Origin: Candidatus Heimdallarchaeota archaeon
Lineage (GTDB): Archaea; Asgardarchaeota; Heimdallarchaeia; Heimdallarchaeales; Heimdallarchaeaceae
Direction of reading: 5' to 3'
DNA: 64,000 bases
Assembly (NCBI GenBank): GCA_030603365.1
Contig: JAUVXV010000006.1
Location: 64,001 to 128,000 of the forward strand
The stretch's first letter is position 1. Each line of letters begins with the position of its first letter. This document shows, one piece after another, positions 17,228 to 48,813 of this stretch. The notes under the pieces were generated by a model that saw only the letters and a list, made by a program, of their open reading frames with translations, was not told the origin of the DNA and ran no database searches. Position numbers and translations under genes: made by a program.

Positions 17228-17809
17228 GTGAATATCATGAAACTCAATAAACTTTCAATGATAAAGTCTGGATATTTATTCAAAACATCCTTAAAAGAGG
17301 ATAAGGAAGGCAATATGAGAGTAATTCTTCCAAAGAATCTCTCCGATGATGGTGTGCTAGATCTTTCGGAACTAATCAAAATAAGACTTGAAGAAAAAGA
17401 AACAATTATGGGTTTAGAAGAAAATCAAATAGTCTTCAAAGCAAAAAGTACAAAACCTGCGGCAAGTTTGATTAAGATGAGAATAGAAAATACTCTTGCA
17501 TCACATCATTTCTTCATCATTTCATTAACATCAGAAGAGGTCATACCAGAATATGTATGCTGGTATCTAAACCAACAACCAGCCCAGAGCTATTTTCGAA
17601 AAAATGCAATGGGTTCAAGAGTACCTATAATAAATAAAAGAACTTTGAGTGAGATAGACATACCTATCATCGATATGAATTCTCAGGCAAAAATTGTGAA
17701 AATATATAACAATTTTATGAAAGAGAAAGGATTAACTAAAAACTTATTACAGCTAAAAGAGAAAACTATGTCTCAAATGCTACTAAACTTCCTACAAGGT
17801 GTAAAGTAA
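17228..17809 (+). CDS. Half-size type I specificity-like subunit (single TRD)
   Basis: PEYVCWYLN...GSRVPIINK..L.EIDIP...Q.KI pattern of one HsdS TRD + helix; TAATG overlap with hsdM. Confidence 0.7.
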   Translation: MNIMKLNKLSMIKSGYLFKTSLKEDKEGNMRVILPKNLSDDGVLDLSELIKIRLEEKETIMGLEENQIVFKAKSTKPAASLIKMRIENTLASHHFFIISLTSEEVIPEYVCWYLNQQPAQSYFRKNAMGSRVPIINKRTLSEIDIPIIDMNSQAKIVKIYNNFMKEKGLTKNLLQLKEKTMSQMLLNFLQGVK

Positions 17810-19281
17810 TGGTTTCAATGAAACAAGAGGAAATATTTCAATTGATTTTTTCGGTCATGGATAGAATAAGAGGTTTTGTAGATTGCGAGGAGTATAAAGA
17901 TATTATACTCCCCCTCTTATTTTACAAGCACATTAGTGATGTATGGATTAAAAATAAAGATGAGGAAACAGGAAAAAATGAAATAAAAGAAACAATTAAA
18001 ATTTCTGACAATAACTCATTTTATGATATATTTGCAAAAATAGAGAAGGACAACAAAGTAAGGATTTTAGAAAAAGCTCTTCTTCTAATAGAGAAAGACA
18101 ATCCAGATGTTCTAAAGGGTGTATTTGAGTACACAATTTTAGAAGGATTAAGGAGGTCAAGAGATTCGCAAATTGAAACTGAAGCAATAATTGGAGCAAT
18201 TGAAATAATAAACCAAATAGATTTGAAACATGATTATGTGAATCAAAAAGAACATGTCAGTATTGGTGAAGTATTTGAAAACGCATTAAACATATTTGCA
18301 TCTATTTCAAGATTTGGTGAGTTTATGACTCCCATTGAGATATCACATTTATTTTCCGAGATTATTAAACCAAAGAAAGGAGATCAAATTTATGACCCAG
18401 CAATTGGCACAGGTTCTCTTCTGCTTAGAGTTTTAGATCATAAGAGAACAAGAAATTTTGAGATTTTTGGTCAAGAGGTAAATAAGCGTAATTGGGCATT
18501 ATGTAAGATGAATATGATTATTCATGGACATCTTGATGCTAATATTGCTTTAGGTAATACTTTATTGAACCCACAGTTTCTTCAGGGAGATAGTATTCAG
18601 AAATTTGATATTGTTATATCAAACCCACCATTTTCAGTGAAAAATTGGAATTATGAACATTTGCAAAAGGACCCATATAATCGTTATAAAAGAGGCATAC
18701 CTCCAGGATCAAATGCAGATTATGCATTTATATCTCACATGATAGAATCATTGAAGGAGAAGCAAGGAAGAATGGGGATTTTGGTTTCACATGGTGTGCT
18801 GTTTAAACGAAGAAAAGAAGGTGAAATCAGGAGAAAAATAGTTGAGGAAAATCTGATTGAAGCTGTAATAGGACTACCAGAGAAGATGCTCTATGGAACG
18901 AGCATACCAGTAGCAATAGTTATCTTGAAAAAGCAGAAAGAAGACACAGATATTTTGTTTATTGACGCTAGTAAAGGATTTGAGGAGGGTAAAAGCTTGA
19001 ACACATTAAGAGTGCAAGATATTAAAAGAATTGCATCAACTTACACTGAGAAAAAGGAAATTGAAAACTACTCTCGTATTGTGAAGATTGAAGAGATTAT
19101 TACGAATGAATATAATCTAAATATTCGACGATATGTTGATAGTTCAGAAATAAAGGAAAAAATTGATATAAAGTGGGCTATAAAGGAAATTGAACAGCTA
19201 GAATATGAATTAAATCAGACTAGAAATAGAACAACAGAATTAATAAAAGAGTTATATAAAATAATCAAGGAGCGAGAATAA
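17809..19281 (+). CDS. hsdM: Type I R-M methyltransferase subunit (copy 1)
   Basis: GEFMTP, YDPAIGTGS, GQE, SNPPF catalytic motif, YNLNIRRYV. Confidence 0.9.
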   Translation: MVSMKQEEIFQLIFSVMDRIRGFVDCEEYKDIILPLLFYKHISDVWIKNKDEETGKNEIKETIKISDNNSFYDIFAKIEKDNKVRILEKALLLIEKDNPDVLKGVFEYTILEGLRRSRDSQIETEAIIGAIEIINQIDLKHDYVNQKEHVSIGEVFENALNIFASISRFGEFMTPIEISHLFSEIIKPKKGDQIYDPAIGTGSLLLRVLDHKRTRNFEIFGQEVNKRNWALCKMNMIIHGHLDANIALGNTLLNPQFLQGDSIQKFDIVISNPPFSVKNWNYEHLQKDPYNRYKRGIPPGSNADYAFISHMIESLKEKQGRMGILVSHGVLFKRRKEGEIRRKIVEENLIEAVIGLPEKMLYGTSIPVAIVILKKQKEDTDILFIDASKGFEEGKSLNTLRVQDIKRIASTYTEKKEIENYSRIVKIEEIITNEYNLNIRRYVDSSEIKEKIDIKWAIKEIEQLEYELNQTRNRTTELIKELYKIIKERE

Positions 19282-19342
19282 TGGTTCAGAAGGAATTAGA
19301 TTTTGAAAAAAAGAACAAAATAAAGAGAGAAGAGGAAAAAAA

Positions 19343-20815
19343 ATGTCAAAACTAGATTTAGATAAACTAAAACCATTCTTGTTGAGTGCAGCAAATATCC
19401 TAAGAGGAAGTATTGACTCAGCTGAGTATAAGCATTACATCTTTGGTTTATTGTTTCTTAAACGTCTATCTGATCAATTTGATGATGAAAGAAAGGAAGT
19501 TAAAGGAAATCCAGAAGATCCTGATAATTACCAATTTTTTGTTCCCCAACGAGCTAGATGGTCATCAATTAGAAAAGTTTCAGAAGGAATAGGAAACGCA
19601 ATTGACAAAGGATTTGAAGCCCTAGAAGAGGATAATCCAATTCTGGAAGGAGTTCTAACTCCTATACAATATGAAGACCCAAGAAAGTTAAATGATGAAG
19701 CATTGAATAAATTGATAGTACATTTCAGTAAAGAAGGATACAATCTTGCTAATTCCAATCTTGCGGAACCAGATATACTTGGAAGAGCCTATGAATACTT
19801 AATAGCTGAATTTGCAGACGATGCCGGAAAGAAAGGTGGAGAATTTTATACTCCCAATGGAGTTGTAAGATTATTAGTTAGAATCCTTAAACCTGAAGAA
19901 GGTATCCGTATTTGTGATCCTGCTTGTGGTAGTGGAGGGATGTTAATAGAATGTACTCATTACTTGAAAGAGCAGGATAAGAATCATATGAATATTTCAC
20001 TTTTTGGTCAAGAAAAGAACCTTAACACCTGGGCAATTGCGAAAATGAATCTTCTTTTACATGGAATTCTAGATGCAAGAATTGAAAGAGGAGATACAAT
20101 GTCTGAACCTAAACTTGTTGAAGATAGTTTTTTAATGCTCTTTGATATAGTAATAGCAAATCCCATGTGGAATCAGAAAGAATGGAGTAGAGAGTTGTTT
20201 GAAGCTGGAGATCCATATGGGAGAGCTAAATATGGTGTTCCTTCAAAAAGTTCAGGAGACTGGATGTGGATTCAGCATATGTTAGCAACACTGAAATTTG
20301 ATGGCAGATTAGGTGTAGTTCTTGATAACGGAGCATTATTCAGAGGAGCTAAAGAGGGGAAAATAAGAAAAGGAATAATTGAAGATGATCTAATTGAAGG
20401 AATTATTGCTTTACCTGCTAACTTATTCATGAATACTGGATCGCCAGGTTGTTTAATAATTTTAAACAAACAAAAAGACAAAATATTAAGAAATAAAATC
20501 TTCTTTATTCATGCGGAAAATGAGTATGAAGAAGGAAAAGCACAGAATTTTCTAAGAGAACCACATATCAATAAAATTGCAGAAACATATCACAAGAAGA
20601 ATGTTAAAGAAAAATTCTCAGATTTGATAGATATAGAAGAAATAAAAGAAAATGATTACAATCTAAATGTCTCAAGATATGTTGATATCTTACCAGAAGA
20701 AGAACTAATTGATCTAGAACAGGTTTTGAAATCTTTAACAGAGATAAAACAAGAAAGAGAGAAACTAGAAGAGGAATTTCATAAAAATATGGTGGAACTA
20801 GGATATGAAAAGTAG
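19343..20815 (+). CDS. hsdM: Type I R-M methyltransferase subunit (copy 2, NPMW motif)
   Basis: ANILRG, GKKGGEFYTP, DPACGSGGML, ANPMWN in place of NPPF, YNLNVSRYV. Confidence 0.92.
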   Translation: MSKLDLDKLKPFLLSAANILRGSIDSAEYKHYIFGLLFLKRLSDQFDDERKEVKGNPEDPDNYQFFVPQRARWSSIRKVSEGIGNAIDKGFEALEEDNPILEGVLTPIQYEDPRKLNDEALNKLIVHFSKEGYNLANSNLAEPDILGRAYEYLIAEFADDAGKKGGEFYTPNGVVRLLVRILKPEEGIRICDPACGSGGMLIECTHYLKEQDKNHMNISLFGQEKNLNTWAIAKMNLLLHGILDARIERGDTMSEPKLVEDSFLMLFDIVIANPMWNQKEWSRELFEAGDPYGRAKYGVPSKSSGDWMWIQHMLATLKFDGRLGVVLDNGALFRGAKEGKIRKGIIEDDLIEGIIALPANLFMNTGSPGCLIILNKQKDKILRNKIFFIHAENEYEEGKAQNFLREPHINKIAETYHKKNVKEKFSDLIDIEEIKENDYNLNVSRYVDILPEEELIDLEQVLKSLTEIKQEREKLEEEFHKNMVELGYEK

Positions 20816-22079
20816 TTTCATTAACATAGAAATTCCAAAGGAATGGCAAGTCAAGAGAATCAAAGATGTCTGCATTATTAATTCTGAGAATTTAAACCTC
20901 GATAAACTAAATGATTTTGATGAAATTTGCTACATAGATATTTCTAGTATAGATACTCAAAACTACCGAATACAAAAATACCAAAAAATACCAAAATCAA
21001 CTTTACCGAGTAGAGCTAGGAGAATAACAAAGAAAAATAACATAATTATTTCAACAGTGAGACCATATCTAAAAGCAACTGCTAAGATTGAAGCCAAACA
21101 CGATTATTTTGTGTGTTCAACTGGATTTGCAGTACTAGAAGCTAAAAATCAAATTGACCATGATTTTCTTTTTCAATGGGTTCTAGGTGAGAAATTTGTT
21201 AATTATTTAATATCTAATATGGTTGGTTCGAACTATCCAGCTGTAAATACTAAGGATATTGAAGACGGTCCTGTAATATTACCTCCTTATTCTGAACAGC
21301 AAATTATTTCCTCTATTCTCTCCAATGTTGACTCCATCATCCACCAAACTCAACAACTCATCAATAATTTGCAGCTCTTGAAGAAAGGATTGATGCAACA
21401 GCTCTTCTCTCAAGGAATAGGGCATAAGGAGTTTCAAGATACGAAACAAGGAAGGATACCTAAAGAGTGGGAAGTTGTGAAACTCGAACAATTAATTGAA
21501 GTAAAAAGTGGTAAAAGACTTCCCAAAGGTGAAAAATTTTCTAAAATACAAACTAGTTATCCATATATAAGAGTTCTAGATTTCAAAGATGGAACAATCA
21601 ATCTTAATAATTTAGAATATTTAACCCCTCAACTAAAGAAGATTTTGAATAAATATACGATTTCATCTGAGGATGTTTATATCTCAATTGCAGGCTCAAT
21701 TGGGATTGTTGGTCTGGTTCCAAATGAACTAAATAATGCTAATCTTACAGAAAATGCAGCTAATCTATCAATTAAAGAAAAGAAAAAATTGACTAAGGAG
21801 TTTCTGTACTATTACCTTGATTCAAGCATTGGACAAAAAGAAATTCGACTCAGGAAAACTATAACAACATTACCAAAATTAGCCTTTAAAAGAATAGAAA
21901 AAATTCCAATCGTCTTACCATCCATTCATGAACAAAAACAATTAACCTCTTTTTTGATAAATTTAGATCGAATCATAGAAGAAGAAATAGTTAATCTAAA
22001 TGAACTTATGAAAATAAAACAGGGGCTTATGCAAAATCTACTCACTGGGAAGAAGAGAGTTCCGATATCATTAACATAA
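20805..22079 (+). CDS. hsdS: Type I R-M specificity subunit (two TRDs)
   Basis: IPKEW occurs twice, PP..EQ..I, LKKGLMQQL / KQGLMQNLLTG conserved regions. Confidence 0.93.
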   Translation: MKSSFINIEIPKEWQVKRIKDVCIINSENLNLDKLNDFDEICYIDISSIDTQNYRIQKYQKIPKSTLPSRARRITKKNNIIISTVRPYLKATAKIEAKHDYFVCSTGFAVLEAKNQIDHDFLFQWVLGEKFVNYLISNMVGSNYPAVNTKDIEDGPVILPPYSEQQIISSILSNVDSIIHQTQQLINNLQLLKKGLMQQLFSQGIGHKEFQDTKQGRIPKEWEVVKLEQLIEVKSGKRLPKGEKFSKIQTSYPYIRVLDFKDGTINLNNLEYLTPQLKKILNKYTISSEDVYISIAGSIGIVGLVPNELNNANLTENAANLSIKEKKKLTKEFLYYYLDSSIGQKEIRLRKTITTLPKLAFKRIEKIPIVLPSIHEQKQLTSFLINLDRIIEEEIVNLNELMKIKQGLMQNLLTGKKRVPISLT

Positions 22080-22211
22080 TATCTTATTTTGAAGGTTCAG
22101 CAATATTATTACTTGAGAATCTTAATAGCAATGCAAAATCTTACAAAACTTAAAATAGAGATATAAGATTTAAGTAAAATGTTAATTGATTAAGAAAATG
22201 CTGGTGATTTA

Positions 22212-25200
22212 GTGGATTTAGTCAAATGGAATGAAAAAAATGAATCAGAAGAGCCTGCACTAAAACTTCTAGAACAACTAGGATATCTAAGAAGGTTAGC
22301 TGATGAACTCACTAATTTATCATCAGAAGCTGAAAGAACTTCACTTAGGCAAGTAATTCTTTTAGAAACTCTTAAGCAAAAAATGAAGGATCTGAATCCT
22401 TGGATAGATGACACCAATATTAAGAATATAATTAGAGATTTAACTATTGTTTCTACATCCAGTCATACTGAATCCAATGAGCTAATCTGGCAATATTTCT
22501 CTAAGAAAGATAAGCTCTTTGTTGATCAAGACTTCAAAGACGGCAAAGGTCGTCGCAAGAGAGGAGTCACGTTAATTGATTGGGATAATCCAGAGAACAA
22601 TGATTTCACTGTTACTGATCAATTCAAAGTCAATGCTCCTAAAGGCAATCGTATTCCTGATATTGTTGTTTTCATTAATGGTCTACCTTTAATTGTCATC
22701 GAGTGTAAGAGTCCTATAATTACTAATCCTCTCACTCAAGCCATTCGTCAAGTACGAGAATATCAAAAAACAATTCCCAAACTCTTTCATTACAATCAAA
22801 TTATCATTGTTACTTCTGGACAATCTGCTAGATATGGTGTTATTGGTAATTCTTATGAAGAATACAAATCTTGGAAAGAACCTTATCCTATCAATATCTC
22901 AGAACTAGAAGAGATTGTTAAGAAGACAGGTAGGAAAAATCCTTCTCCTACTCCTCAAGATATCACTCTTTACGGTTTGTTGGAAAAACGAAATCTCCTA
23001 GATCTCATTCGTAATTTCATTATTTACGAAACTAGACATGGAAAGAAAGTAAAGAAAATAGCTCGATATCAGCAATTCCGAGCTGTTAACAAAACTGTGA
23101 ACAGAATACTTACTGAGAAAGATGTTCATCAAAGAGGTGGGACAATCTGGCACACTCAAGGTTCAGGTAAATCCCTTACTATGCTCTTTACTGCTATAAA
23201 GCTTAAAAGAGAAAAATCTCTTATGAATCCTCTTCTTGCCTTCGTTACTGATAGGATAGATCTTGTCAGACAACTCAGAGATACTTTCGATAATTGTGGT
23301 TTTTCAAATCCACAAAAAGCTAAGAATGTTGATCATCTGCAGGAATTAGTCAAAACAGGACAGGGGATTACTATTTTTACTACTATCCAGAAATTCCATA
23401 CTCGAGATGCTGATAGACGAACAGGCATTTCTAGAACTGGGATGGTTTTTCCTGAATTAAACAGTGATGAAAATATTATTGTTCTTGTTGATGAAGCTCA
23501 TCGTTCTCAATACAAGTACTTTGCAATTAATCTGAGAAAAAGCATGCCTAATGCAGCTTATATTGCTTATACTGGAACACCTTTAGCCAAAAATGAGAAA
23601 AACGAAAGAATGACAGTTGGTAAAGGAAAAACTGTTCGAACCTTTGGCTCATTCATAGATATTTATGATATCCGTCAATCTGTTGAAGATGAAGCAACTG
23701 TCAAGATTCTATACGAAAGTCGATTGTCTGATCTTCGCTTGGAAGGAGAAACCATTGATGAAATCTTCGAGAGAGTATTTGCAAATTTAACAGTTGCAGA
23801 ACGCGAGAAGATCAAGAATAAGTACGCAAACGTTGATGCTATACTTGCAGCTGAAGAACGAATTAAGAGAATAACTCTAGATATAGTTGAACATTACACA
23901 CAGCATATTTTACCTAATGACTTCAAAGCTCAGGTTGTGGTAAATAGTAGAGAACTAGCTGTTAGATACAAGAAATACCTTGAACGATTTAATGCCCCTG
24001 AATCTGTTGTGATAATATCTGCTAATCCTCGATATGATGAGGAGTTAAAGAAGAAATATGAAGTTGATTTTGTAACTGATAAGTCTAAACAAGATTTAAT
24101 GATTGACCGATTTAAAGATCCTGAAGACTCATTGAAAATTCTTGTTGTTTGCGATATGCTAATCACTGGTTTTGATGCCCCAATCGAGCAAGTCATGTAC
24201 TTGGATAAATCTTTAAGAGAACACACTCTGCTTCAAGCTATCGCAAGGGTTAACAGAACCTATGAAAATAAAACTCATGGTCTAATCGTTGATTACTATG
24301 GTGTCTCTAACAATCTTGAAGAGGCTTTAGAAATCTTTGATAAACCAGATATAGAAGGTTTCATGAAAGATATTAAGACCGAATTACCCAAACTTGAGCA
24401 ATATCATCGCAAAGCTATAAGCCACTTTGAGGGATTTGATTTAACTGATTTGAACAATTGTGTTTTAGTTTTGGAACCTGAGGATACTAGGGCTAGTTTC
24501 CATCATGATTGTAAGAAATTTGCACAAACCCTAGATATAGTACTACCTGATCCTGCTGGAGAGAAGTACTTGCCTGATCTTAAGAAACTTGGAGAGATAG
24601 TTATAGCTGCTCGTAATCGTTTTAGAGAAGAAAGTCTTGATATTGTAGGTTTTGGTGGTAAAGTACGAGAGATTATAGATGAACACATTCGCGCAACCAA
24701 GATAATCCAACTAGTTGAGCCTGTTTCTATTTTATCTGACAAATTCAATGAAGTTCTTGAAGCTCTGAAAGATGAAAAAGCTGTCGCAAGTGAGATGGAA
24801 CATGCCATAAAACATCAAATCACGATTAAGGTTATAGAAGACCCGGCATTTTATACGAGTTTAAGAAAAAGACTAGAAGAGATAATCAAAGAGTATAAAG
24901 AGCATCGAATAAGTCTTGCTGAAAAGATAAACAAACTCAAAGCAATTGCTCAAGATATAAAAGCTAGACCTGATGTAGCAAAATTTCTAGGTTTGAATAC
25001 AGCTGAGATGGCCTTCTATAATATTTTCAAGAGAGAGTTAGAAGAAATAGAAATAAGTGATAGCAGAGAGATAGTCAGGTTTACTTATGAGACCCTGGAG
25101 AGTATAGAACCCCTAGTCTCAATCGTTGATTGGCATCTCAAATCAGATATTCTAAGACAAATTAGAAGAGCCTGTAAGCAAAAGTTCTTTGAACTTCAAG

Positions 25201-25286
25201 AGGAATTTCCAATTCCATCAGAACTACATCAAGCTCTTTCGCAACAGATTGTTGAATTAGCTAAAGTCCACTTTGTTGCTAGTTAA
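22212..25286 (+). CDS. hsdR: Type I R-M restriction subunit
   Basis: PDIVVFINGLPLIVIECK nuclease motif, HTQGSGKS, DEAHRSQY, TGTP, QAIARVNR. Confidence 0.95.
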   Translation: MDLVKWNEKNESEEPALKLLEQLGYLRRLADELTNLSSEAERTSLRQVILLETLKQKMKDLNPWIDDTNIKNIIRDLTIVSTSSHTESNELIWQYFSKKDKLFVDQDFKDGKGRRKRGVTLIDWDNPENNDFTVTDQFKVNAPKGNRIPDIVVFINGLPLIVIECKSPIITNPLTQAIRQVREYQKTIPKLFHYNQIIIVTSGQSARYGVIGNSYEEYKSWKEPYPINISELEEIVKKTGRKNPSPTPQDITLYGLLEKRNLLDLIRNFIIYETRHGKKVKKIARYQQFRAVNKTVNRILTEKDVHQRGGTIWHTQGSGKSLTMLFTAIKLKREKSLMNPLLAFVTDRIDLVRQLRDTFDNCGFSNPQKAKNVDHLQELVKTGQGITIFTTIQKFHTRDADRRTGISRTGMVFPELNSDENIIVLVDEAHRSQYKYFAINLRKSMPNAAYIAYTGTPLAKNEKNERMTVGKGKTVRTFGSFIDIYDIRQSVEDEATVKILYESRLSDLRLEGETIDEIFERVFANLTVAEREKIKNKYANVDAILAAEERIKRITLDIVEHYTQHILPNDFKAQVVVNSRELAVRYKKYLERFNAPESVVIISANPRYDEELKKKYEVDFVTDKSKQDLMIDRFKDPEDSLKILVVCDMLITGFDAPIEQVMYLDKSLREHTLLQAIARVNRTYENKTHGLIVDYYGVSNNLEEALEIFDKPDIEGFMKDIKTELPKLEQYHRKAISHFEGFDLTDLNNCVLVLEPEDTRASFHHDCKKFAQTLDIVLPDPAGEKYLPDLKKLGEIVIAARNRFREESLDIVGFGGKVREIIDEHIRATKIIQLVEPVSILSDKFNEVLEALKDEKAVASEMEHAIKHQITIKVIEDPAFYTSLRKRLEEIIKEYKEHRISLAEKINKLKAIAQDIKARPDVAKFLGLNTAEMAFYNIFKRELEEIEISDSREIVRFTYETLESIEPLVSIVDWHLKSDILRQIRRACKQKFFELQEEFPIPSELHQALSQQIVELAKVHFVAS

Positions 25287-25324
25287 TATATGAAAGTGTC
25301 TATATACTATTAAGAGGAACTGCC

Positions 25325-26071
25325 ATGCCTAAGACTTCTCCAAAAATCAGTTTCGGTGAAACGAGTTTTGCTTATTCTATCATTAGAACAAATAGAACTA
25401 CAATAGCTATCATTGTTGAACCTGATGGTAGTGTTATAGTTCGAGCTCCTTATGATCTATCTGAAGAAACCGTTGAAGAAAAAGTAAGAGAGAAGAGGAG
25501 ATGGGTAGCAGAAAAACTCACTAAAACTGATGAAATAGTTAAACCTGTACCTAAGAGAAGAGAATTAGTAAGTGGGGAAAAGATCAAACTCAAGGACAAA
25601 CTAATCAGATTGAAAATTCACCATTTCGATAAAAGAAGAACTGTAGTAGAATTAGACAAAAATACTCTTCATATCTATATTAATAAGGATTTGAATGAAT
25701 TAGAAAGAAAAGAGGAATTGAAGAAAGTTCTCTTGAAATGGTATAAAGAACAAGCAAAAGATATCATTTCTACTAGAGTTGATAAATTCTCAAAATCATT
25801 TGATCTTAAACCAAACGGGATAGTTATTAGAAGTCAACAACTGAGATGGGGGAGCTGTACAAAGAATAACATATTGAACTTCAATTGGCGTATTGTAATG
25901 GCGCCTATTTCAGCAATAGATTATATTGTTGTTCATGAATTGTGTCATCTCAAAGAACCTCTTCATTCAATTGAATTTTGGAATTTGCTAGAATCACACT
26001 TCCCTGAATACAATAAATGGAAAGAGTGGTTAAGAATAAATGGTTTAACTCTTGATTTAAAATTTGAATAA
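25325..26071 (+). CDS. YgjP/DUF45 (M48-like) metal-dependent hydrolase, common neighbour of hsdR
   Basis: RWGSC, LNFNW, DYIVVHELCHL (HExxH), H...FW. Confidence 0.88.
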   Translation: MPKTSPKISFGETSFAYSIIRTNRTTIAIIVEPDGSVIVRAPYDLSEETVEEKVREKRRWVAEKLTKTDEIVKPVPKRRELVSGEKIKLKDKLIRLKIHHFDKRRTVVELDKNTLHIYINKDLNELERKEELKKVLLKWYKEQAKDIISTRVDKFSKSFDLKPNGIVIRSQQLRWGSCTKNNILNFNWRIVMAPISAIDYIVVHELCHLKEPLHSIEFWNLLESHFPEYNKWKEWLRINGLTLDLKFE

Positions 26072-26148: not shown

Positions 26149-26694
26149 GTGTGTTTCAAACAAATTAAAAATATCTTGAAAAAGAAGAATAAACCAAGTA
26201 TTTATGATTACAATCTTACAGATAAGGAATACTATGGTAAGAGTAAAAAATCGTATGAAAAAGATAAATATCAAGATCACCTAATTGATCAATATCGGAT
26301 ATTAACTGATAAAGCTGATAGAATAAGTGATAAAAGAGCAGTTACAAATGGTTTTTTTCTAACACTAAACACAATTATTGGAACAGCCAGCATAGTTCTA
26401 ATTGACATAATTAGTAATTCTTTATTCATAATACCTCTAAGTGTAATTGGCATACTGTTCTCATTGCTTTGGTTTGGTATGATAAGGAATTATAAGAAAT
26501 TAAATACAGCAAAGTTCAATGTAATCAATAAGATTGAAGAGAAATTACCTATAAAAGGCTTTTATGCTGAATGGGAAATTTTAAAGAAAAAGATGAAATA
26601 TAAAGGATTATCAGAATTTGAAAAATGGATTCCTTGGTTCATTATACTAATGTATTGTGTGTTAATAGGATTCTCTATTTATTCATTTGTATAA
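26149..26694 (+). CDS. Three-TM membrane protein, candidate pore-forming effector (resembles RipA-like small integral membrane proteins)
   Basis: QY....ADRISDKR..TNGFFLTLNT, two TM helices, Y..LN.AKF.VI..IEEKLP...F..EW, terminal TM helix. Confidence 0.65.
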   Translation: MCFKQIKNILKKKNKPSIYDYNLTDKEYYGKSKKSYEKDKYQDHLIDQYRILTDKADRISDKRAVTNGFFLTLNTIIGTASIVLIDIISNSLFIIPLSVIGILFSLLWFGMIRNYKKLNTAKFNVINKIEEKLPIKGFYAEWEILKKKMKYKGLSEFEKWIPWFIILMYCVLIGFSIYSFV

Positions 26695-26750
26695 TTGAAT
26701 CTCATAAATAGCTAGAAAGTTTTTTATTTACAGTATCTATTAGCTAAATT

Positions 26751-27152
26751 ATGGCAATGATTTATGTTTGCTATGAGAGTGGAGATATAAAATATAGAAA
26801 TGATTTCGCTAGCATGATGCTTAATCAAAATAATCAAATTACAGATATACCTGTTACAGATAAAGAAAATAAACGTCCAGAAGGTCCTGAAGCTGTTAAG
26901 AGATATATTTTAAGCTTAATGAGAGATTGTGCTGCAGTAGCTGTATTAGTTGGTAGAAACACACACAATGCTCCGGTTGTCCGATGGGAACTTGAAGTGG
27001 CAAATTCTCAAAACAAGAAAATACTCGCGATTAAAATTCCTACTACTTCAGGAGGACTTCCTCCTTTATTAAAAACGATTGGAATTCAAACAATTGAGTG
27101 GGATCCACAACTGATTGAGGAAGAATTATCCAGATTATTCGGTAGAGAATAG
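26751..27152 (+). CDS. TIR-like domain protein (DUF1863/ThsB-like), copy 1
   Basis: IYVCY, VAVLVGRNTH...VRWELEVA with the catalytic-position Glu, IEWD. Confidence 0.8.
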   Translation: MAMIYVCYESGDIKYRNDFASMMLNQNNQITDIPVTDKENKRPEGPEAVKRYILSLMRDCAAVAVLVGRNTHNAPVVRWELEVANSQNKKILAIKIPTTSGGLPPLLKTIGIQTIEWDPQLIEEELSRLFGRE

Positions 27153-27168
27153 AATAAATGTGATTGAT

Positions 27169-27423
27169 ATGATGGATAAGAAATGTATGTTTCGAAAACC
27201 TGAATCGCCTAAATGTCAAGAAGAAGGGTTCAATTGTTTAGAACTGAAAATGTTTCATCCTCTAACTGAGAGAAATTCAAAACAAATTTGGTTTTTATGT
27301 GATGAGCACCTAGATAAATTTCTTAAGACAGATGGGAAGGATTGGATTAAATGGAAGAAGGAGGAGAAAAACAAAATGAGCATTAGCTATGTATTGGATT
27401 TCAAAATTAATTATCTACTCTAG
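27169..27423 (+). CDS. Small Cys/His (putative Zn-binding) protein
   Basis: In-frame ATG at 27169; C-x9-C-x6-C...CDEH; lies within a co-directional cluster. Confidence 0.5.
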   Translation: MMDKKCMFRKPESPKCQEEGFNCLELKMFHPLTERNSKQIWFLCDEHLDKFLKTDGKDWIKWKKEEKNKMSISYVLDFKINYLL

Positions 27424-27444
27424 AGAATCCAACTGAATAATTAG

Positions 27445-28044
27445 GTGCAAAGAATGGAAAAAGTAGTAGTTTTGATGTCAGGTGGCATAGATTCTTTTCT
27501 AATGTGTAAAATTCTTTCTGAAAATTATGAACTATATCCCCTTTTTGTGGATTATGGGCATTTAGCAGCTAATCAAGAACAAAAAACTGTTTTGAAACAA
27601 ATAAAATTTCTCAATCTTAATTCAGCAAAATTGGTTAAAATCCCTGACTTAGGACTTAAAAATAGTTTAACTTTAGAAGAAGAATATAAAGATGATTTTT
27701 ATCCAGGAAGGAATCTTCTCTTGCTTATAATAGCTGCACAATTCGCCATAGGAATGAATATAGAAAGGATTGCTTTGGGTATAATAAGGAGCGAAAGAGT
27801 TTTTTCAGATTCCACTTCGTTTTTCATTCAAAGAGCTGAACAATTAATTTCTGATAGCGTTAATAAACAAATGACTATTTTCACTCCAATTTCTGATTTA
27901 CAAAAGAATGAAGTTGTAGAGTTAGCTAAAGAGCTAGAACTACCTCTTAGTCATTCCTACTCTTGTCAAAAAGGAGATTTGAAAGAATGTGGCAAATGTC
28001 TTTCATGTCTGGAATTAGATAAAGCTATTTTAGAAAATAAATGA
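27445..28044 (+). CDS. QueC-like (7-cyano-7-deazaguanine synthase family; Cap9-like) PP-loop ATPase
   Basis: SGGIDS PP-loop, DYGH, YPGRNLLL, SYSC...CGKCLSC Zn site; only 199 aa, with FSDST where canonical QueC has YPDC. Confidence 0.88.
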   Translation: MQRMEKVVVLMSGGIDSFLMCKILSENYELYPLFVDYGHLAANQEQKTVLKQIKFLNLNSAKLVKIPDLGLKNSLTLEEEYKDDFYPGRNLLLLIIAAQFAIGMNIERIALGIIRSERVFSDSTSFFIQRAEQLISDSVNKQMTIFTPISDLQKNEVVELAKELELPLSHSYSCQKGDLKECGKCLSCLELDKAILENK

Positions 28045-28120
28045 TTTTCATTCTTTTGGACAGAAAGATTTTAATTTTATAATTAGTTATATTATTAAAC
28101 AAAAAGGATGTGGAGGATTA

Positions 28121-29017
28121 ATGAAAATACTTAAGCAATTCGGATATGGGAGAATAGTTGAATTGAAAATTAATAATCTTCAGAGATACACTCCAATGTT
28201 TATTCCTGCTTTATCGAGTGCAAGTAGAAAAAACGATTTCTTAAATGCTAAAAGATGGGTAAAAAGAGTAAAACCTGTGGATTTCTTAATTTCAGCTTAT
28301 GATTACATAGAAGATTTTAAGGATCTAAAGATTAAGAAAGATTCTTTTGTAACATTAGACAGTGGGGGTTATGAGCTCAGAAACATCATAAAACCAAAAC
28401 AATGGACTCTTGATTCTTATTTAGAGATAATTGATAAAATCCATCCAGATATGATTATATCCCTTGATCATCCTGAAAACAACTTTACTCAATCAATTAG
28501 CTGTTTTGAGCAAATAAAAGAAAGCTATTCTAACAATTCTTATCTACAATTCGTAATTGCTGAAACTAAAAAAGAAAAGATCCCAGATTCAGTAATAAAT
28601 ACTTTACAACTGATTGAACTAGATGTTATTGGGATTCCAGAAGTGAATCTAGGAAAAAATCTAGAAGAAAGATTACAAAGTATTCAGTCTATAGTTAAGA
28701 TTCTTAGCTCTATGCAGAATCCAACCCTTCTACATATCTTAGGCTGCAGTGATCCTGAGATGATTAAGAAATATGCATTATCTGGAGCAGATATATTTGA
28801 TGGGCTAGGTTGGTATAGACAAGTTGTTGATATTTCAGATAATGAAAACTTTAAATTCACTAATTTCGCAAATTTGGATAGTGATTGTGAATGTAAAGCA
28901 TGTAAATTAACACTAACTGAAGACTATGAAGAAAAGGTTTTTGCTCACAACTACTTAGCTTATTATGCTTTGATGGAACAAATAAGAGAGATGATTATCA
29001 AAGGAAGTGAAATCTAA
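28121..29017 (+). CDS. tRNA-guanine transglycosylase-like protein (Cap10-like)
   Basis: TPMFIP, DSGGY, LHILG, ADIFDG, CECKAC...HN Zn site; lacks the C-terminal PUA domains of archaeal ArcTGT. Confidence 0.82.
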   Translation: MKILKQFGYGRIVELKINNLQRYTPMFIPALSSASRKNDFLNAKRWVKRVKPVDFLISAYDYIEDFKDLKIKKDSFVTLDSGGYELRNIIKPKQWTLDSYLEIIDKIHPDMIISLDHPENNFTQSISCFEQIKESYSNNSYLQFVIAETKKEKIPDSVINTLQLIELDVIGIPEVNLGKNLEERLQSIQSIVKILSSMQNPTLLHILGCSDPEMIKKYALSGADIFDGLGWYRQVVDISDNENFKFTNFANLDSDCECKACKLTLTEDYEEKVFAHNYLAYYALMEQIREMIIKGSEI

Positions 29018-29538
29018 TGGGTGGAGGAAGCAGTGGAGTATATAATCCACCAAGTAGATCGGCGACATATGGAAAAGATTTAAAGAATCAAGCAAATGAA
29101 AGTATAAGAAACACAGAAATGAGATTGCAAAGGAGACTTACTGATTTTTCCTATGAACCCCGTAATGTGTTCATCAGCTTTCATACTGTGGATGAAATGC
29201 AAGTAAAGCTCTTAAGATACCAAGCAAAGGATGATAGATTCGATTTTGCTTTTCGGGATTATTCAGTTCAAGAACCTTTCTCAGATAAATGGAAAACGAG
29301 AGTAAAAGAGAGAATAAAGAGAAGTGATTATACTATTTGCTTGATTGGTGAAGATACACATTCTAGAGAAGCTGTTAATTGGGAATTGAATCAAAGCTAT
29401 AAAATGGATAAGAAGGTAGTTGGTGTTAGAATTTATCGTGATGCAAAACACAAAATACCAGAACCAATAAAGAGAAATAAATCAAAAGTAGTTGACTGGA
29501 ATCTTGGAGATATCATGGAGCAATTATCTGAAGAATAA
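29017..29538 (+). CDS. TIR-like domain protein (DUF1863/ThsB-like), copy 2, with Gly-rich N-terminal extension
   Basis: Starts MGGGSSGVY; RNVFISF, DYSV.EPF, TICLIGEDTHSREAVNWEL, VVDW; TAATG overlap with the TGT-like gene. Confidence 0.85.
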   Translation: MGGGSSGVYNPPSRSATYGKDLKNQANESIRNTEMRLQRRLTDFSYEPRNVFISFHTVDEMQVKLLRYQAKDDRFDFAFRDYSVQEPFSDKWKTRVKERIKRSDYTICLIGEDTHSREAVNWELNQSYKMDKKVVGVRIYRDAKHKIPEPIKRNKSKVVDWNLGDIMEQLSEE

Positions 29539-36243: not shown

Positions 36244-36780
36244 TTACAATGAAGTTTCTAGAAACCATAAATCCTCTTCTAGATCATAGTCACTCATTTT
36301 TCCTGAATGTAGAATATTTTTTGTTGATAATATTCCTAGATGTATCAGATGTTTCTTAAATGTAAAAACTGTTGAATGAGTTATTTTTTCTCTTAAAACT
36401 CTCTCTTCCTCATAGATACTCTTTTCTTCACCCTTTTGATACATTCTCAATACTTCTTCTTTCTTGTTCTTTTGACAGAAAAGATTTATGAACAGATTTG
36501 GTTTATTCTTTACTATTTCTTCTACTAACTCCTTAAAACTCATCTCTTTCCTTTTCTGCTTTTCAAACACTTTCAGTAATTCCATAAACAGCTCATTTTT
36601 GTTATACAATAATTTCAACGTTATAGCTATCTCTGGATACTCTGTCATCAGTGATACTCCCTTCTTTCTACTCATTTCTTTCTTTATCGCTTCCAATTCC
36701 TCTAAACTATCTAATCCTCTAACTGTAAAGTATTCCTTATAATCTAATATGATATACCCTATAGAATTTGATAGAATCAT
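36244..36780 (-). pseudogene. Orphan C-terminal fragment of the 38684-39844 gene (open frame, unrelated first about 22 aa)
   Basis: Shares SRKKGVSLMTEYPEIAITLK...ITHSTVFTFKKHLIHLGILST with the intact gene. Confidence 0.8.
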
Positions 36781-36840: not shown

Positions 36841-37743
36841 ATGTTTACCAAGAAACAGGTTGATATTGTTAGAAGATTGGAGAATTTTTCGCAGATCTAT
36901 GCTCACTATGCTCTTGAAGGTGAAAAACCAAAAAAAGAGCAATTTGAAGAAGATAATAACTATTTAGCTTTGCTTTTATTTATTAAATATGCTTATGAAA
37001 GGAATATTGATCTTACAAATTATAGAACTTGTGCCTTGGATACATTAGAACAATATAGGAAGAAAATTAACTGGACAAAATCTCTCTATCATAAAGCTGT
37101 GGAAGATATCTGGAAAACTTACCAAGAGATTGCAAAGAAAAAGTATGAAGGATTGAAAGTTAATGAAAAAAATAATCCAATGAATTCTAAAGAAGGGGTA
37201 CTAAATCGTCTCTCAGAAGAATCTATCATAAATTTAACAAAATATGCAAGAAAAAAATTAATTGAACAAAATACTCAAGAAATATATGATTTCATCTGTA
37301 GTATAAGAGGTGTTAAATATAAAATTGCTTCTTTCTATTTACGGGATCTAGCATTTTTCCTTGAAATAGATGAAAATCAAATCAAAGATCTTTACCTCTT
37401 GCAACCTATTGATATATGGTTAGAGAGGGTAGGTAAAATACTTTTTAAGGAATGGAAACCAATTTCATATTCAAAAAAAGTAATTGTTGAAAAACAAAAA
37501 AAAATACTTACTCTTTGTAAACAAGCTGAGGTTTCATCTATTTCTTTCAATCAGGGCACTTGGGAATTTGGAGCAAGAATAGCCAAATCTGAAAGGAAAT
37601 TCGAAAAAGCTCTCAATAATGAAGATTATATGGAAGATCTAGTCAAATATCGAAAGGATGAACTAAGGGACGAAATAACAAGATATGAAGAATGGATGAA
37701 AGATAATGAGAATTATTTAAATTTACTTCAAAAACGAAATTGA
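36841..37743 (+). CDS. HhH-GPD-like DNA glycosylase/lyase family protein
   Basis: IRGVKYKIASFYLRD helix-hairpin-helix with Lys, followed by QPIDIWLERV (catalytic Asp position). Confidence 0.6.
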   Translation: MFTKKQVDIVRRLENFSQIYAHYALEGEKPKKEQFEEDNNYLALLLFIKYAYERNIDLTNYRTCALDTLEQYRKKINWTKSLYHKAVEDIWKTYQEIAKKKYEGLKVNEKNNPMNSKEGVLNRLSEESIINLTKYARKKLIEQNTQEIYDFICSIRGVKYKIASFYLRDLAFFLEIDENQIKDLYLLQPIDIWLERVGKILFKEWKPISYSKKVIVEKQKKILTLCKQAEVSSISFNQGTWEFGARIAKSERKFEKALNNEDYMEDLVKYRKDELRDEITRYEEWMKDNENYLNLLQKRN

Positions 37744-37875
37744 TTACAAATATCTATGAAACAATATGAAGAAAGTGAATGAGCTCTTCAATGTACCGAT
37801 AAATAATTATCTTACAGTTAATTCTGGATTTTCTTCTGTTTTTCCCTGATTTTTCCAATAGTTTAAGCTCTGGAT

Positions 37876-38060
37876 TGGAATGACATAGTTTATACAGATA
37901 TATTCAACCAATTTTTATAAACGAGAAAATTCATACCACAATAAACACATTCTAAGCCATACTACCTAAAAACAGGTATGCCATAATCTTTTCTTGAAGA
38001 ACCTTTGTAGATAATTTCACCTTATAGTCTTTTTCCTTCATATTTATCAAATGGATTCAT
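37876..38060 (-). pseudogene. HNH endonuclease relic
   Basis: MNPFDKYEGKRL*GE..GSSRKDYGIPVFR*YGLECVYCG...WLNISV, then YVIP in another frame; in-frame stops and a frameshift. Confidence 0.55.
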
Positions 38061-38077
38061 ATCAAAACCATCTTACA

Positions 38078-38665
38078 TCACTCTTTTAATCTTAAATCCT
38101 CTTGTTCCAATTCTTTGTCTTTGAGTAAATCAATTACTCTTATTTTTTCCCCTAAATATCTTTTCCATCCTACGGCTTCTTTAACGAGTTTTGAATGTTC
38201 TTCTTTTTCTATTACACAAGCAATAACAATCTCAAGCGAAGAAATAACATGTCTACTGTCAGTTGGATTTTTAATAATCTCATTTATTATCTTCTTTTTC
38301 TCATAAACATGTTCGTGTCTTAACCTCTGATATAATTCCTTCCCTCTTTTCCCTTCTTCTAAATTCGTTAAATAGCATTCAATTGCTTCAGTTGTCCAAT
38401 ACCTTTGACCTGAATACTTAGTATCTTTTCTAGGACCAGGAGATTCTGTTATTTTCCATATCCACGTGTCAATTATATCATCTATAACCCAATCAATAAT
38501 AATATCTTGAGGTATATTCTTAGCAAGATAGACTATATTTTTAGTTGCTAAGTCAGTAATAAAACACTTCTTAGCTAAATACTCTTCGTATATTTCTTTT
38601 GTTTTATTAAATAATATTTCTTCCTTCTCATTTCTAATTAGATATTGCTTCATTTTAAGACACAC
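38078..38665 (-). CDS. Hypothetical protein, possible HNH-like (HEHV) nuclease
   Basis: LRHEHVYE...CVIEKEEH..L...GWKRY pattern. Confidence 0.45.
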   Translation of the reverse strand: MCLKMKQYLIRNEKEEILFNKTKEIYEEYLAKKCFITDLATKNIVYLAKNIPQDIIIDWVIDDIIDTWIWKITESPGPRKDTKYSGQRYWTTEAIECYLTNLEEGKRGKELYQRLRHEHVYEKKKIINEIIKNPTDSRHVISSLEIVIACVIEKEEHSKLVKEAVGWKRYLGEKIRVIDLLKDKELEQEDLRLKE

Positions 38666-38683
38666 TCTTTATTACTTATTTAC

Positions 38684-39844
38684 TTAAGATAAAATCCACG
38701 AATCTTCATCAGACTTATATTCGATTAGTTTTCCAGAATATATTGTGTTCTCTGTCGATAATATGCCTAGATGTATCAGATGTTTCTTGAACGTGAAAAC
38801 GGTCGAATGAGTTATTTTTTCTCTTAAAACTCTCTCTTCTTCATAGATACTCTTCTCTTCGCCCTTCTGATACATTAGCAGCACTTCTTCTTTCTTATTC
38901 TTTGGACAGAAGAGGCTTATGAACATATTTGGTTTATTCTTTACTATTTCTTCTACTAACTCCTTAAAGCTCATCTCTCTCCTTTTCTGCTTTTCAAATA
39001 CTTTCAGTAATTCCATAAACAGCTCATTTTTGTTATATAGCATTTTCAACGTTATCGCTATTTCTGGATACTCTGTCATCAACGATACTCCCTTCTTTCT
39101 ACTCGTCTCTTTCTTTATCTCTTCTAACTTCTCTAAACTATCTATCTCTTCTAATTGCATGATTTTCTTTAAAACGAACCCTTCATCTGTTATCCTTACC
39201 TCTCCCCCTTGTTCCTTTATCAAACCTATTATTATTGCACCTCTAACTAACTCTGAAGTGTTTTGAATATTGTAATCCTGAAGTTTCTCTTCTACTGTTC
39301 TTTTTTCAACCCAATTCGAATCTATGAACAGTATAGGAGCTAGATAGTTTACTATGTGATTTCTTGTTAAATCTGTTAATCTTTTCTGGGAAGAGACCAT
39401 ATCTTTGCTTAGAATGAATAACTCTCTTCTTGTATCATCTATAAAATGAGCTCTAAATTGTTCTATTGGATCTATCTTCCTTACTTCTTTTTCTGAAACC
39501 AATATTGAACCTATATTCCCTTGTTTTAAAGCTACATCAAATCTAGTCAAAGATTCTTTTTCAGCTGCTAGATAGACGACATTTGAACCCTCTTTGTATG
39601 TTAAAGCTTGTCCTATACCTTTCTGAATATCCTTTGTTCCTTTAGCTTCAATAGCGATTATATCTTCAAACTGATTGAAACCTATCAAATCAGGAATAAA
39701 TCCTTTAATTGTTATATTATGTCTAGGATAGTCTTTAGGATGAAGTTTTGCATAAGCTGGGTGGTTATCTATCCATAACTGATAGTTTGATTCTTCAAAT
39801 AAGAAATCGAATGTTCGTTTAACTACTTCTACTTCTTCCATCAC
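38684..39844 (-). CDS. PD-(D/E)xK nuclease fused to wHTH-like domains
   Basis: PDLIG...IAIEAKG...GIGQALTY; ITDEG wing motif. Confidence 0.7.
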   Translation of the reverse strand: MMEEVEVVKRTFDFLFEESNYQLWIDNHPAYAKLHPKDYPRHNITIKGFIPDLIGFNQFEDIIAIEAKGTKDIQKGIGQALTYKEGSNVVYLAAEKESLTRFDVALKQGNIGSILVSEKEVRKIDPIEQFRAHFIDDTRRELFILSKDMVSSQKRLTDLTRNHIVNYLAPILFIDSNWVEKRTVEEKLQDYNIQNTSELVRGAIIIGLIKEQGGEVRITDEGFVLKKIMQLEEIDSLEKLEEIKKETSRKKGVSLMTEYPEIAITLKMLYNKNELFMELLKVFEKQKRREMSFKELVEEIVKNKPNMFISLFCPKNKKEEVLLMYQKGEEKSIYEEERVLREKITHSTVFTFKKHLIHLGILSTENTIYSGKLIEYKSDEDSWILS

Positions 39845-44086: not shown

Positions 44087-44638
44087 ATGAAAACTTTAGT
44101 TGCAATAATTGGAGACTCAAATATCTCTCAAGAATCAATCAAATATAAATTATCTTATAGATTAGGAAGATTATTGGTGGATAATAAGTATGTAATAATT
44201 ACAGGAGGTCGAGGGGGAGTTATGAAAGCTGCAAGAAAAGGAGGAAGAAGTTCACATAATTATAAAATTGGATCAATAATCGACATTTTACCTTATTTTG
44301 ATCCAAACAAGGGTGATTCCAGCAGTGATTTAATCATATCTACAGGTCTGGATATATTTAGAAACACAATAGTGGCAAATAGTTATGCAGTAATAGCAAT
44401 AGGTGGTGGAGCAGGAACATTATCTGAAATTGCTTACGCATGGCAATTAAAACGAATGATAATTGCATATAAGGTAGAAGGTTGGAGTGGTAAACTTGCT
44501 AATACTAAAATCGACGAGAGAAAAAGAATTGACTGGGAAGGAGATAAAGTGTTTGGTGTTGAAACCGCTGAGGAAACACTATCTATTTTACTTAATTACA
44601 AAGGATATTATCTGAAATGGCATAAACGTATATCATGA
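44087..44638 (+). CDS. SLOG/LOG-family protein (TIGR00725-like)
   Basis: TGGRGGVM.AA..G, TGL...RN.IV, GGGAGTLSEIAYAW. Confidence 0.85.
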   Translation: MKTLVAIIGDSNISQESIKYKLSYRLGRLLVDNKYVIITGGRGGVMKAARKGGRSSHNYKIGSIIDILPYFDPNKGDSSSDLIISTGLDIFRNTIVANSYAVIAIGGGAGTLSEIAYAWQLKRMIIAYKVEGWSGKLANTKIDERKRIDWEGDKVFGVETAEETLSILLNYKGYYLKWHKRIS

Positions 44639-48327: not shown

Positions 48328-48711
48328 TTATAAATTTTCTCTTCTATAATTCACATCATCTTCATGTTGATCATCAAAATCATTTTCTGATAAAAGAACT
48401 AGATCAAATTTAGCTCCAGATTGAAAATCAAGATGAACAACATTGTAATTGCTTCCAGGATAAACATTATCAGCTTTAAAATTTGATTTTAAAACTGAAA
48501 TTAATCTAGGATAAAAAGACTCTTCTGAAGGATTACCTGTAACAGAGAATATTACATCCATATCACTATCTGGTCTGTGTGTCCTAAGAGCTCGTGATCC
48601 AGCTTGAGCTATTCTAGAAATTTTCAGATTTGATTTTGTCATTACATTAACTATACTCTTCCATAGTCTATGATAATGAGCTTCACTATTCTTATTATTA
48701 TTAAATGTCAT
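48328..48711 (-). CDS. Minimal pol-beta-like nucleotidyltransferase
   Basis: AGSRALRTHRPDSDMD (GS...DxD) and third Asp in FDLV; 127 aa, no C-lobe. Confidence 0.8.
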   Translation of the reverse strand: MTFNNNKNSEAHYHRLWKSIVNVMTKSNLKISRIAQAGSRALRTHRPDSDMDVIFSVTGNPSEESFYPRLISVLKSNFKADNVYPGSNYNVVHLDFQSGAKFDLVLLSENDFDDQHEDDVNYRRENL

Positions 48712-48813
48712 GACAAAGTAATTGTTATTAAATTATAAAAAGCTTTAGAATTCCATTGCAGTTATACTGAAAACACATACAACAAAACCAAGTTTTTTAG
48801 ATGCAACAAGATT

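Follow-up and report, generated by a model that had tools for sequence, protein, structure and literature searches.

A six-gene cluster in a Heimdallarchaeota archaeon raises the question of whether a QueC- and TGT-like pair resembling that of type IV CBASS can serve a TIR protein instead of a CD-NTase. The analysed window, a DNA stretch of 64,000 nucleotides, carries six co-directional open reading frames at positions 26149-29538 of the forward strand, and ORF and Pfam analysis found them directly behind a type I restriction-modification locus, where a first-pass annotation had placed them. The cassette begins 78 bp past the YgjP-like peptidase gene (25325-26071; PF01863, E 3e-56) that closes this locus; the type I genes and the peptidase (17228-26071, forward strand, assigned from ORFs and methylase/helicase motifs) form the upstream context and lie outside the cassette. 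The GC content of the cassette (30.6%) equals that of the window and is only a little lower than that of the genome (33.3%), and thus gives no sign of foreign origin. Promoter and terminator scans gave chance-level results (19 versus 19.5). We regard it as probable that the cassette encodes a Thoeris-type antiviral system, consisting of a TIR signal enzyme and an 8xMP effector, which carries a type IV CBASS-like add-on that deazaguanylates the second TIR protein, TIR-2.

The cassette is real and not a chance arrangement, because the start of TIR-2 is unique in the genome and the full set of six turns up again at four other loci (L001, L003 of a Heimdallarchaeota MAG, L004/L005 and L006), which also bears out the conservation elsewhere on which the annotation depended. 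The order of TIR-1, the small gene, QueC, TGT and TIR-2 is kept in all five loci, and 8xMP sits at the opposite end in three of the four relatives; TIR-1 therefore travels with the QueC block and not with 8xMP. A CD-NTase was found in none of the five. QueC also adjoins the TIR in 38 further distinct loci of the TIR-2 family, mostly in the order TGT-OGG-QueC-TIR-8xMP.

The QueC-like enzyme (27454-28044, forward strand; QueC, E 1.2e-31) comprises 196 residues from its likely start at ATG 27454 (199 from GTG 27445) and keeps the PP-loop and zinc site described at first reading, the latter with all four cysteines, as well as the YPGRN motif. Its best PDB match is Cap9 (9nto, E 2e-14), ahead of QueC (3e-9), and Cap9 residues S18/D22/S23, R86, Y115 and D117 correspond to S12/D16/S17, R89, F120 and D122 of the cassette enzyme. 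By analogy with Cap9, it is predicted to be the ligase attaching CDG to Gly2 of TIR-2. Phylogenetic analysis placed both enzymes of the pair with TIR-linked proteins (support 96/94 for QueC and 98 for TGT), with the cassette QueC apart from housekeeping QueC (100/97), in line with the annotation's separation of the pair from housekeeping archaeosine enzymes. The host's own queD and queC lie on contig C1, together with queE-like and GTP cyclohydrolase-like genes, and it has a separate full-length archaeal TGT; the cassette enzymes do not branch with these archaeosine enzymes, and neither queD nor queE adjoins them.

The TGT-like protein (28121-29017, forward strand; 298 aa; TGT, E 6.3e-10) is compact, with the DSGG, DIFD and CxCxxC...H zinc motifs kept (C256, C258, C261 and H276 conserved) and PUA domains absent, as first reported. 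Its sole significant PDB match is Cap10 (9ntn, E 4.5e-11), whose D73, S74, D122, H226 and D248 correspond to D80, S81, D116, H205 and D227; the position of Cap10 K154 appears as Gln147. The zinc site is intact, as the annotation had it, but it sets the protein apart from the solved CBASS Cap10, which has none, and the motif is kept in most TIR-linked TGTs and absent from CD-NTase-linked ones. The same site aids nucleic acid binding in canonical TGTs and thereby lends something to the idea that QueC and TGT insert 7-deazaguanine into DNA or RNA in a Dpd-like or tRNA-like manner, tied to the adjoining restriction-modification genes and with the TIRs as bystanders. A weak DpdA match (E 0.004) points the same way, yet we hold this reading very improbable: dpdB/C and queD/E are absent from the cassette, the related loci have different neighbours yet always a tailed TIR, and the closest structural relative by sequence is Cap10.

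The predicted client of the pair, TIR-2 (29017-29538, forward strand), is a ThsB-type protein of 173 aa (PF08937, ThsB_TIR, E 2e-16) with an invariant catalytic Glu123, and would be the modified signalling enzyme. Its coupling to the TGT gene and its MGGGSSG start, both read at first pass, were found as described: the start codon shares one base with the TGT stop (TAATG), and the coupling recurs in L001, L003, L004 and L006. Motif and model together predict an N-terminal extension (29017-29127, forward strand) made of a Gly-rich acceptor tail (residues 1-15) and a docking helix (residues 16-37). The tail matches 4 of the 6 positions of the CD-NTase motif M(G/S)G(G/S)GG, and among 3157 genome ORFs of at least 100 aa TIR-2 alone begins with MGG[G/S], one other beginning with MSGG. 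Clade variation occurs, with MNSGG replacing MGG in one locus (L004, L006). Of the 76 TIRs that adjoin a TGT-fold protein or a QueC, 70 fit a strict tail pattern, versus 0 of the 12 lacking such a neighbour, counts that include relatives and are thus not independent; the six TIRs that fail the pattern despite such a neighbour also bear Gly-rich extensions, and at least four changes are needed on the TIR tree to account for the tail-less forms.

Modelling of the TGT and TIR-2 complex gave an ipSAE of 0.80 (best control 0.20) with residues 16-37 as the interface, in a model that leaves tail residues 1-15 unplaced, uses alignments built in-house and may owe something to the solved Cap10-CdnD complex. 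Among solved pairs 58 of 80 attained the mark for such scores, and among mismatched pairs 2 of 110; the model runs had at least 50% of contacts in common, with a partner pLDDT of at least 68. That the modelled interface is the helix and not the tail would also suit a TGT acting as a chaperone or inhibitor that binds the tail and helix of TIR-2 and involves no covalent deazaguanylation, with QueC making a free deazaguanine ligand or using another substrate. In 32 loci a Gly-tailed TIR stands beside a degenerate TGT-fold protein (hhalign 92%, E 5.5e-7) and QueC is missing in cis, so that binding may be the role of the tail just as well as accepting the base. Furthermore, QatC, a related enzyme, failed to activate CDG in vitro, and the annotation's statement that QatC acts similarly on QatB is accordingly not established. 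Nevertheless, every residue examined is kept, both those with which Cap9 contacts NDG and those with which Cap10 reads the base and catalyses, and the preQ0 pathway of the host makes a second small-molecule synthase unnecessary; we consider the non-covalent alternative quite unlikely.

The first gene of the cassette (26149-26694, forward strand) encodes a protein of 181 aa of the 8xMP family (Pfam PF24838, E 1.6e-35), whose three hydrophobic segments agree with the 3-TM membrane protein first noted. Members of this family adjoin TIR-2 family proteins in 130 of 142 loci, and 8xMP is predicted to be a Thoeris effector. Its model is helical (pLDDT 89.5); sequence and fold searches returned no solved relative, with only generic helical bundles among the fold matches. 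Compared with the effectors of the verified Thoeris types I-XI, it hit none of the Pfam models for SIR2, Macro, caspase, DUF2270 and SLATT. TIR-1 (26751-27152, forward strand; 133 aa; PF08937, ThsB_TIR, E 1.2e-11) is of the ThsB type without an N-terminal tail, keeps its catalytic Glu in a WEL motif, matches the PADLOC profiles ThsB and PDC-M50B and is conserved in L001, L003, L004 and L006. Tail-less TIR and 8xMP pairs occur without QueC or TGT in 12 loci, and the QueC/TGT module is therefore an add-on. These pairs would also fit two modules sharing one effector, with 8xMP and TIR-1 as a plain Thoeris pair defending alone and QueC, TGT and TIR-2 as a separately acquired second sensor arm. The two TIRs are distant from each other (29% identity over 63 aa), and multi-TIR Thoeris islands are known. 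Against such a division, which we judge unlikely, it is 8xMP that moves among the five loci and not TIR-1, and the N-terminal deazaguanine on TIR-2 would be kept even so.

Between TIR-1 and QueC lies a Cys/His protein of 84 aa (27169-27423, forward strand) common to all five six-gene loci and of no known family. Its start is most likely an ATG at about 27169-27172 rather than TTG 27115, and it is probably a zinc binder via C5, C15, C43 and H46, numbered from ATG 27172. The family counts 61 representatives at 50% identity, one of them a spurious repeat protein, and also adjoins CD-NTase-type modules. Its model (pLDDT 90.9) found a best fold match of only Z 4.8 and TM of at most 0.55, with no viral match below E 0.001; Pfam held no family for it, the Atlas gave only weakly recognised, unnamed archaeal clusters, and viral contigs yielded no match. 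These blank searches do not prove a new fold. The small gene, taken as a marker, was present in 0 of 24 same-genus genomes, indicating patchy spread.

Cap11/OGG was found neither in the cassette nor in its four relatives, and PF22175 was not found in the genome (89% complete). A glycosylase-like gene at 36841 was ruled out as Cap11, being 7 kb away with a score of 9 bits. In two loci (L007, L179) the candidate client is a Gly-tailed metallo-beta-lactamase-fold enzyme. A broader reading, which we put forward as doubtful, takes Cap9/Cap10 as a module for N-terminal tagging that is portable among clients of three kinds or more (CD-NTase, TIR and this enzyme); in this Asgard lineage the small zinc protein would replace Cap11 as infection sensor or adaptor, both where the client is a TIR and where it is a CD-NTase, and the TGT, its zinc site kept, would still bind nucleic acid and transfer the NDG-tagged TIR onto it. 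Were it true, the acceptor of NDG transfer would be named.

[quoted passage not shown] The chance of this is slight in the extreme: the SMODS protein lacks a Gly-rich N-terminus, unlike true type IV CD-NTases (L178, L210), and none of the other four loci with the six genes, which lie on short contigs, yielded a SMODS call. This gene, the sole SMODS match in the genome, was ruled out as a client for want of a Gly tail.

The preferred reading, a Cap9/Cap10-like module serving a TIR and not a CD-NTase and coupled to a membrane effector, is the one proposed at first pass, and conservation, phylogeny, tail motif and complex model all back it. By analogy with the solved CBASS case, Met1 of TIR-2 would be removed and QueC would activate CDG, supplied by the host archaeosine operon, with ATP and join it to Gly2, yielding an N-terminal deazaguanine (NDG). 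According to the model, TGT would then bind helix 16-37 with NDG in its base pocket and keep TIR-2 primed. Upon infection TIR-2, aided or paralleled by TIR-1, may convert NAD+ to an ADP-ribose-derived signal, which would open an 8xMP oligomer, damage the membrane and abort the infection; the small zinc protein would be an accessory.

Type IV CBASS consists of Cap9, Cap10 and CdnD (Wassarman et al., bioRxiv 10.1101/2025.04.06.647259; Science 2025), with Cap11 optional. The cassette shares with it a compact QueC and TGT with NDG-forming and NDG-reading residues, including the Cap9 motif set (PP-loop, RN, YxD, zinc), and a client that has a Gly-rich tail ahead of a docking helix and is encoded by a gene coupled to that of TGT. 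The client is a CD-NTase in CBASS and, by prediction, a TIR in the cassette, with no SMODS gene among the six; its zinc-keeping TGT and its QueC represent lineages separate from the CBASS Cap10 and Cap9 sampled. A deazaguanylation client would bear a covalent +176 Da adduct on Gly2, and TIR-2 carries the motif for it. With Thoeris in general the cassette shares ThsB-type TIRs with the catalytic Glu, and with types V and VII the pairing of such a TIR with a small multi-helix membrane protein; their effectors are ThsF/DUF2270 and ThsH/SLATT, whereas 0 of 50 8xMP homologues match either family in Pfam. In QatABCD, too, a defence enzyme of the QueC family acts on the N-terminal Gly motif of a partner, as predicted here, but QatC has about 400-450 aa and a remodelled active site and matches the cassette QueC only at E 5e-7, and the Qat ATPase and TatD are absent from the cassette.

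The supposition that the architecture was uncatalogued does not hold. Thoeris operons with cap9/cap10/cap11 appear in Fig. 6G and S10B of a December 2025 preprint (Yirmiya et al., bioRxiv 10.64898/2025.12.03.692087), where they are reported without a test or a type name; the general layout being already there, the cassette is a variant and not a new system. These operons likewise combine a TIR, an effector and Cap9-/Cap10-like genes with no CD-NTase, and a TIR-Cap10 contact was modelled for an example from Pseudomonadales (AF3 ipTM 0.79, beside the ipSAE of the cassette). The preprint also places TIR-2-like sequences in TIR cluster 2635319349 and gives an unverified '3TM' effector class. The features specific to the present locus are its Heimdallarchaeia (Asgard) host, the absence of Cap11/OGG, a second, tail-less TIR, a zinc-keeping Cap10 and the small protein; relative to the operons depicted there, its order is QueC-TGT-TIR and not TGT-OGG-QueC-TIR. 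Literature searches found no experiment on any TIR-Cap9/Cap10 operon, nothing on Asgard, TIR and QueC in combination, no older QueC/TGT/TIR/SLATT description and no report linking 8xMP with Thoeris.

Since the concept is already in the preprint, what the cassette contributes is a variant on which the idea can be tested, and not a discovery. The type IV CBASS cyclase is so far the single client in which deazaguanylation has been shown, and the compact TIR version offers a second, biochemically simpler test case, with tail-less TIR and 8xMP pairs and QueC-less tailed forms as natural controls. It would add 8xMP as a Thoeris effector and would extend TIR signalling with protein modification to the Asgard archaea, the prokaryotes most closely related to eukaryotes.

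All six co-directional open reading frames that the first-pass annotation had placed at 26149-29538 were present as stated. The membrane protein belongs to the 8xMP family (Pfam, E 1.6e-35), TIR-1 and TIR-2 both belong to ThsB_TIR (E 1.2e-11 and 2e-16), and the cassette QueC and TGT were assigned to their Pfam families at E 1.2e-31 and 6.3e-10; the Pfam scan returned no family for the small Cys/His protein. PADLOC profiles named QueC and TGT were matched at E 4e-34 and 2e-31, and the QatC profile more weakly (E 5e-7); the modification of QatB by QatC, earlier cited as established, is not established. The closest solved structures by sequence are Cap9 (9nto, E 2e-14) and Cap10 (9ntn, E 4.5e-11), both of type IV CBASS. 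The TIR-2 start codon shares one base with the stop codon of TGT, and TIR-2 is alone among 3157 ORFs of the genome in starting with MGG[G/S].

The cassette is real and conserved. The same six genes were found at four other loci (L001, L003, L004/L005 and L006), and the order TIR-1, small gene, QueC, TGT, TIR-2 is constant across the six-gene loci, with TGT duplicated in L003. The position of 8xMP varies: two loci have it upstream and three have it downstream, on the opposite strand. Of 400 genomes from the phylum, 3 carried the small gene, which served as a marker, and of 24 from the genus none did, a patchy spread of the pattern expected of defence cargo.

The host genome (3.65 Mb, completeness 89%) carries, apart from the cassette, a cluster of queE-like, GTP cyclohydrolase-like, queD and queC genes, along with an archaeal TGT of 524 aa and another TGT-family gene, similar in size to ArcS. 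Because of these separate pathway genes and the archaeal TGT, CDG is likely available in the host, and the cassette QueC and TGT represent extra copies. The housekeeping QueC (G000:C1:140597-141271, L168) and its same-genus copies lack the YxQxHxxE motif, have FPDN replacing YPDC and form a long branch; a same-genus genome also encodes a divergent QueC (L208:1336-3698, G015:C171) amid phage-like nucleotide-metabolism genes (MazG-like, dCMP deaminase-like).

Phylogenetic analysis bore out the separation from housekeeping enzymes on which the earlier proposal depended. The cassette QueC clusters with those of the four other six-gene loci (100/99). This cluster is nested in a wider group (96/94) of QueCs linked to TIRs or lactamases, from which the 13 housekeeping QueCs and the three Cap9s of CBASS type are excluded. 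In a quick-search TGT tree, with the very long-branched host archaeal TGT as outgroup, the TIR-linked TGTs fall together (SH-aLRT 98) and are separate from the zinc-less CBASS-type Cap10s. Since few CBASS sequences were sampled and both roots are weak, no order of events is claimed.

The Cap9 residues binding pyrophosphate and the N-terminal deazaguanine (S18, D22, S23, R86, Y115, D117) correspond to S12, D16, S17, R89, F120 and D122 in the cassette QueC, and Cap10 D73, S74, D122, H226 and D248 to D80, S81, D116, H205 and D227 in the cassette TGT, which, unlike the solved Cap10, retains its zinc site. Both TIRs keep the catalytic Glu. A complex model of TGT with TIR-2 scored 0.80, against 0.20 for the best control, with at least half of the contacts agreeing between runs and partner pLDDT of at least 68; part of this score may reflect similarity to the Cap10-CdnD complex, whose structure is solved. 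Of the solved complexes, 58 of 80 reached the mark used, as did 2 of 110 mismatched pairs; these rates hold only roughly here because our own alignments were supplied. In the model, TIR-2 residues 16-37 pack against the N-terminal strands and C-terminal helix of TGT, paralleling the role of CdnD helix alpha1 in type IV CBASS, and the tail itself is unplaced.

The small protein, confidently modelled (pLDDT 90.9) and with about 60 relatives, gave no match in a fold search; its invariant Cys/His positions suggest the binding of one zinc. Ten gene contexts were compared: the five six-gene loci; L210 (3-2784), a type IV CBASS with a poly-Gly (Gly-tailed) SMODS cyclase; L211 (3-3401), where a mini nucleotidyltransferase and a SAVED effector gene are the neighbours; and L207, L216 and L217, without a nearby QueC. 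In L210 and L211 the gene stands head-to-head with the QueC-TGT block. The QueC-linked share of these contexts is biased, since the initial searches were seeded from QueC loci. The protein is a recurring accessory with a putative mechanistic role. In L207 (681-8775, G048:C80) its homologue closes a run of large uncharacterised genes (a 1230-aa repeat-rich membrane-anchored protein, a 522-aa membrane protein and a 622-aa P-loop ATPase), which looks like an integrated mobile element, perhaps viral.

Relatives of TIR-2 were gathered from genomes and metagenomes, and 8xMP adjoins them in 130 of 142 loci. After removal of duplicates and of loci without upstream sequence, 88 remained. QueC was present in 38, mostly as TGT-OGG-QueC-TIR-8xMP, from Nitrososphaerales, Bathyarchaeia, Thermoplasmata, Thorarchaeota and some bacteria; the other classes comprised 5 six-gene loci, 32 loci in which a degenerate TGT-fold protein occurs and QueC is missing, a single locus whose only partner gene is TGT, and 12 that lack any ancillary gene. 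The Gly-rich tail (strict pattern) occurred in 70 of 76 TIRs with a partner and 0 of 12 without, counts inflated by kinship, and on the TIR tree no fewer than four changes are needed to account for the tail-less forms, one group of which is nested among QueC-linked TIRs; the tail is therefore tied to the TGT-fold partner, and TIR with 8xMP forms the core, able to stand alone. In the three-gene class, seen at L009:2513-4268 and at 31 loci like it (among them Methanosarcina hadiensis L050), QueC is missing in cis, and 8xMP is combined with a TIR whose MGGG tail is Arg-rich and with the degenerate TGT-fold protein (~270-330 aa; hhalign 92%, E 5.5e-7), which lacks DSGG and zinc. At L007:8663-14635 and L179:4664-8782, the genes after OGG, QueC and TGT encode a metallo-beta-lactamase-fold protein whose N-terminus is Gly-rich (MGGGGGGSG and MGRSGG, respectively) and a membrane protein, and neither locus holds a TIR or CD-NTase; the lactamase-fold protein is likely a third client of the deazaguanylation module.

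Further genes of the window were also recorded. At 48328-49584 (minus strand) a SMODS-domain nucleotidyltransferase (256 aa, without Gly tail) is followed by a 127-aa minimal nucleotidyltransferase resembling that of L211, with no obvious effector beside the pair; the same island encodes a stand-alone SLOG cluster 4 protein (44087-44638; PF18306, E 3e-29). At 36841-39844 lie two nuclease-like ORFs and, facing them, a 300-aa protein whose HhH/OGG-like motif is weak (9 bits, own OGG profile); a second copy of the C-terminal half of 38684-39844 lies at 36244-36780. The type I R-M locus (17228-22079) has two methylase-like genes preceded by a short specificity-like gene. Three large genes (1883, 594 and 639 aa; two P-loop ATPases) at 52233-61566 (minus strand) resemble a Dnd/Dpd-associated type of defence operon.

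The absence of a cyclase means that the cassette is not a CBASS, although it is predicted to work like type IV CBASS. The view that its architecture has no known precedent stands only in part: Thoeris operons with cap9, cap10 and cap11 are reported by Yirmiya et al. (bioRxiv 10.64898/2025.12.03.692087), who give AF3 ipTM values of 0.79 for TIR-Cap10 and 0.62 for TIR-Cap9 and include no such operon among the 30 that they tested. The cassette is predicted to work like that class, but lacks Cap11 and adds TIR-1 and the small protein. We favour, with fair confidence, a Thoeris system whose TIR-2 is predicted to be N-terminally deazaguanylated. The cassette, probably antiviral by prediction, belongs to an already known, so far only predicted kind, of which it is a new variant.
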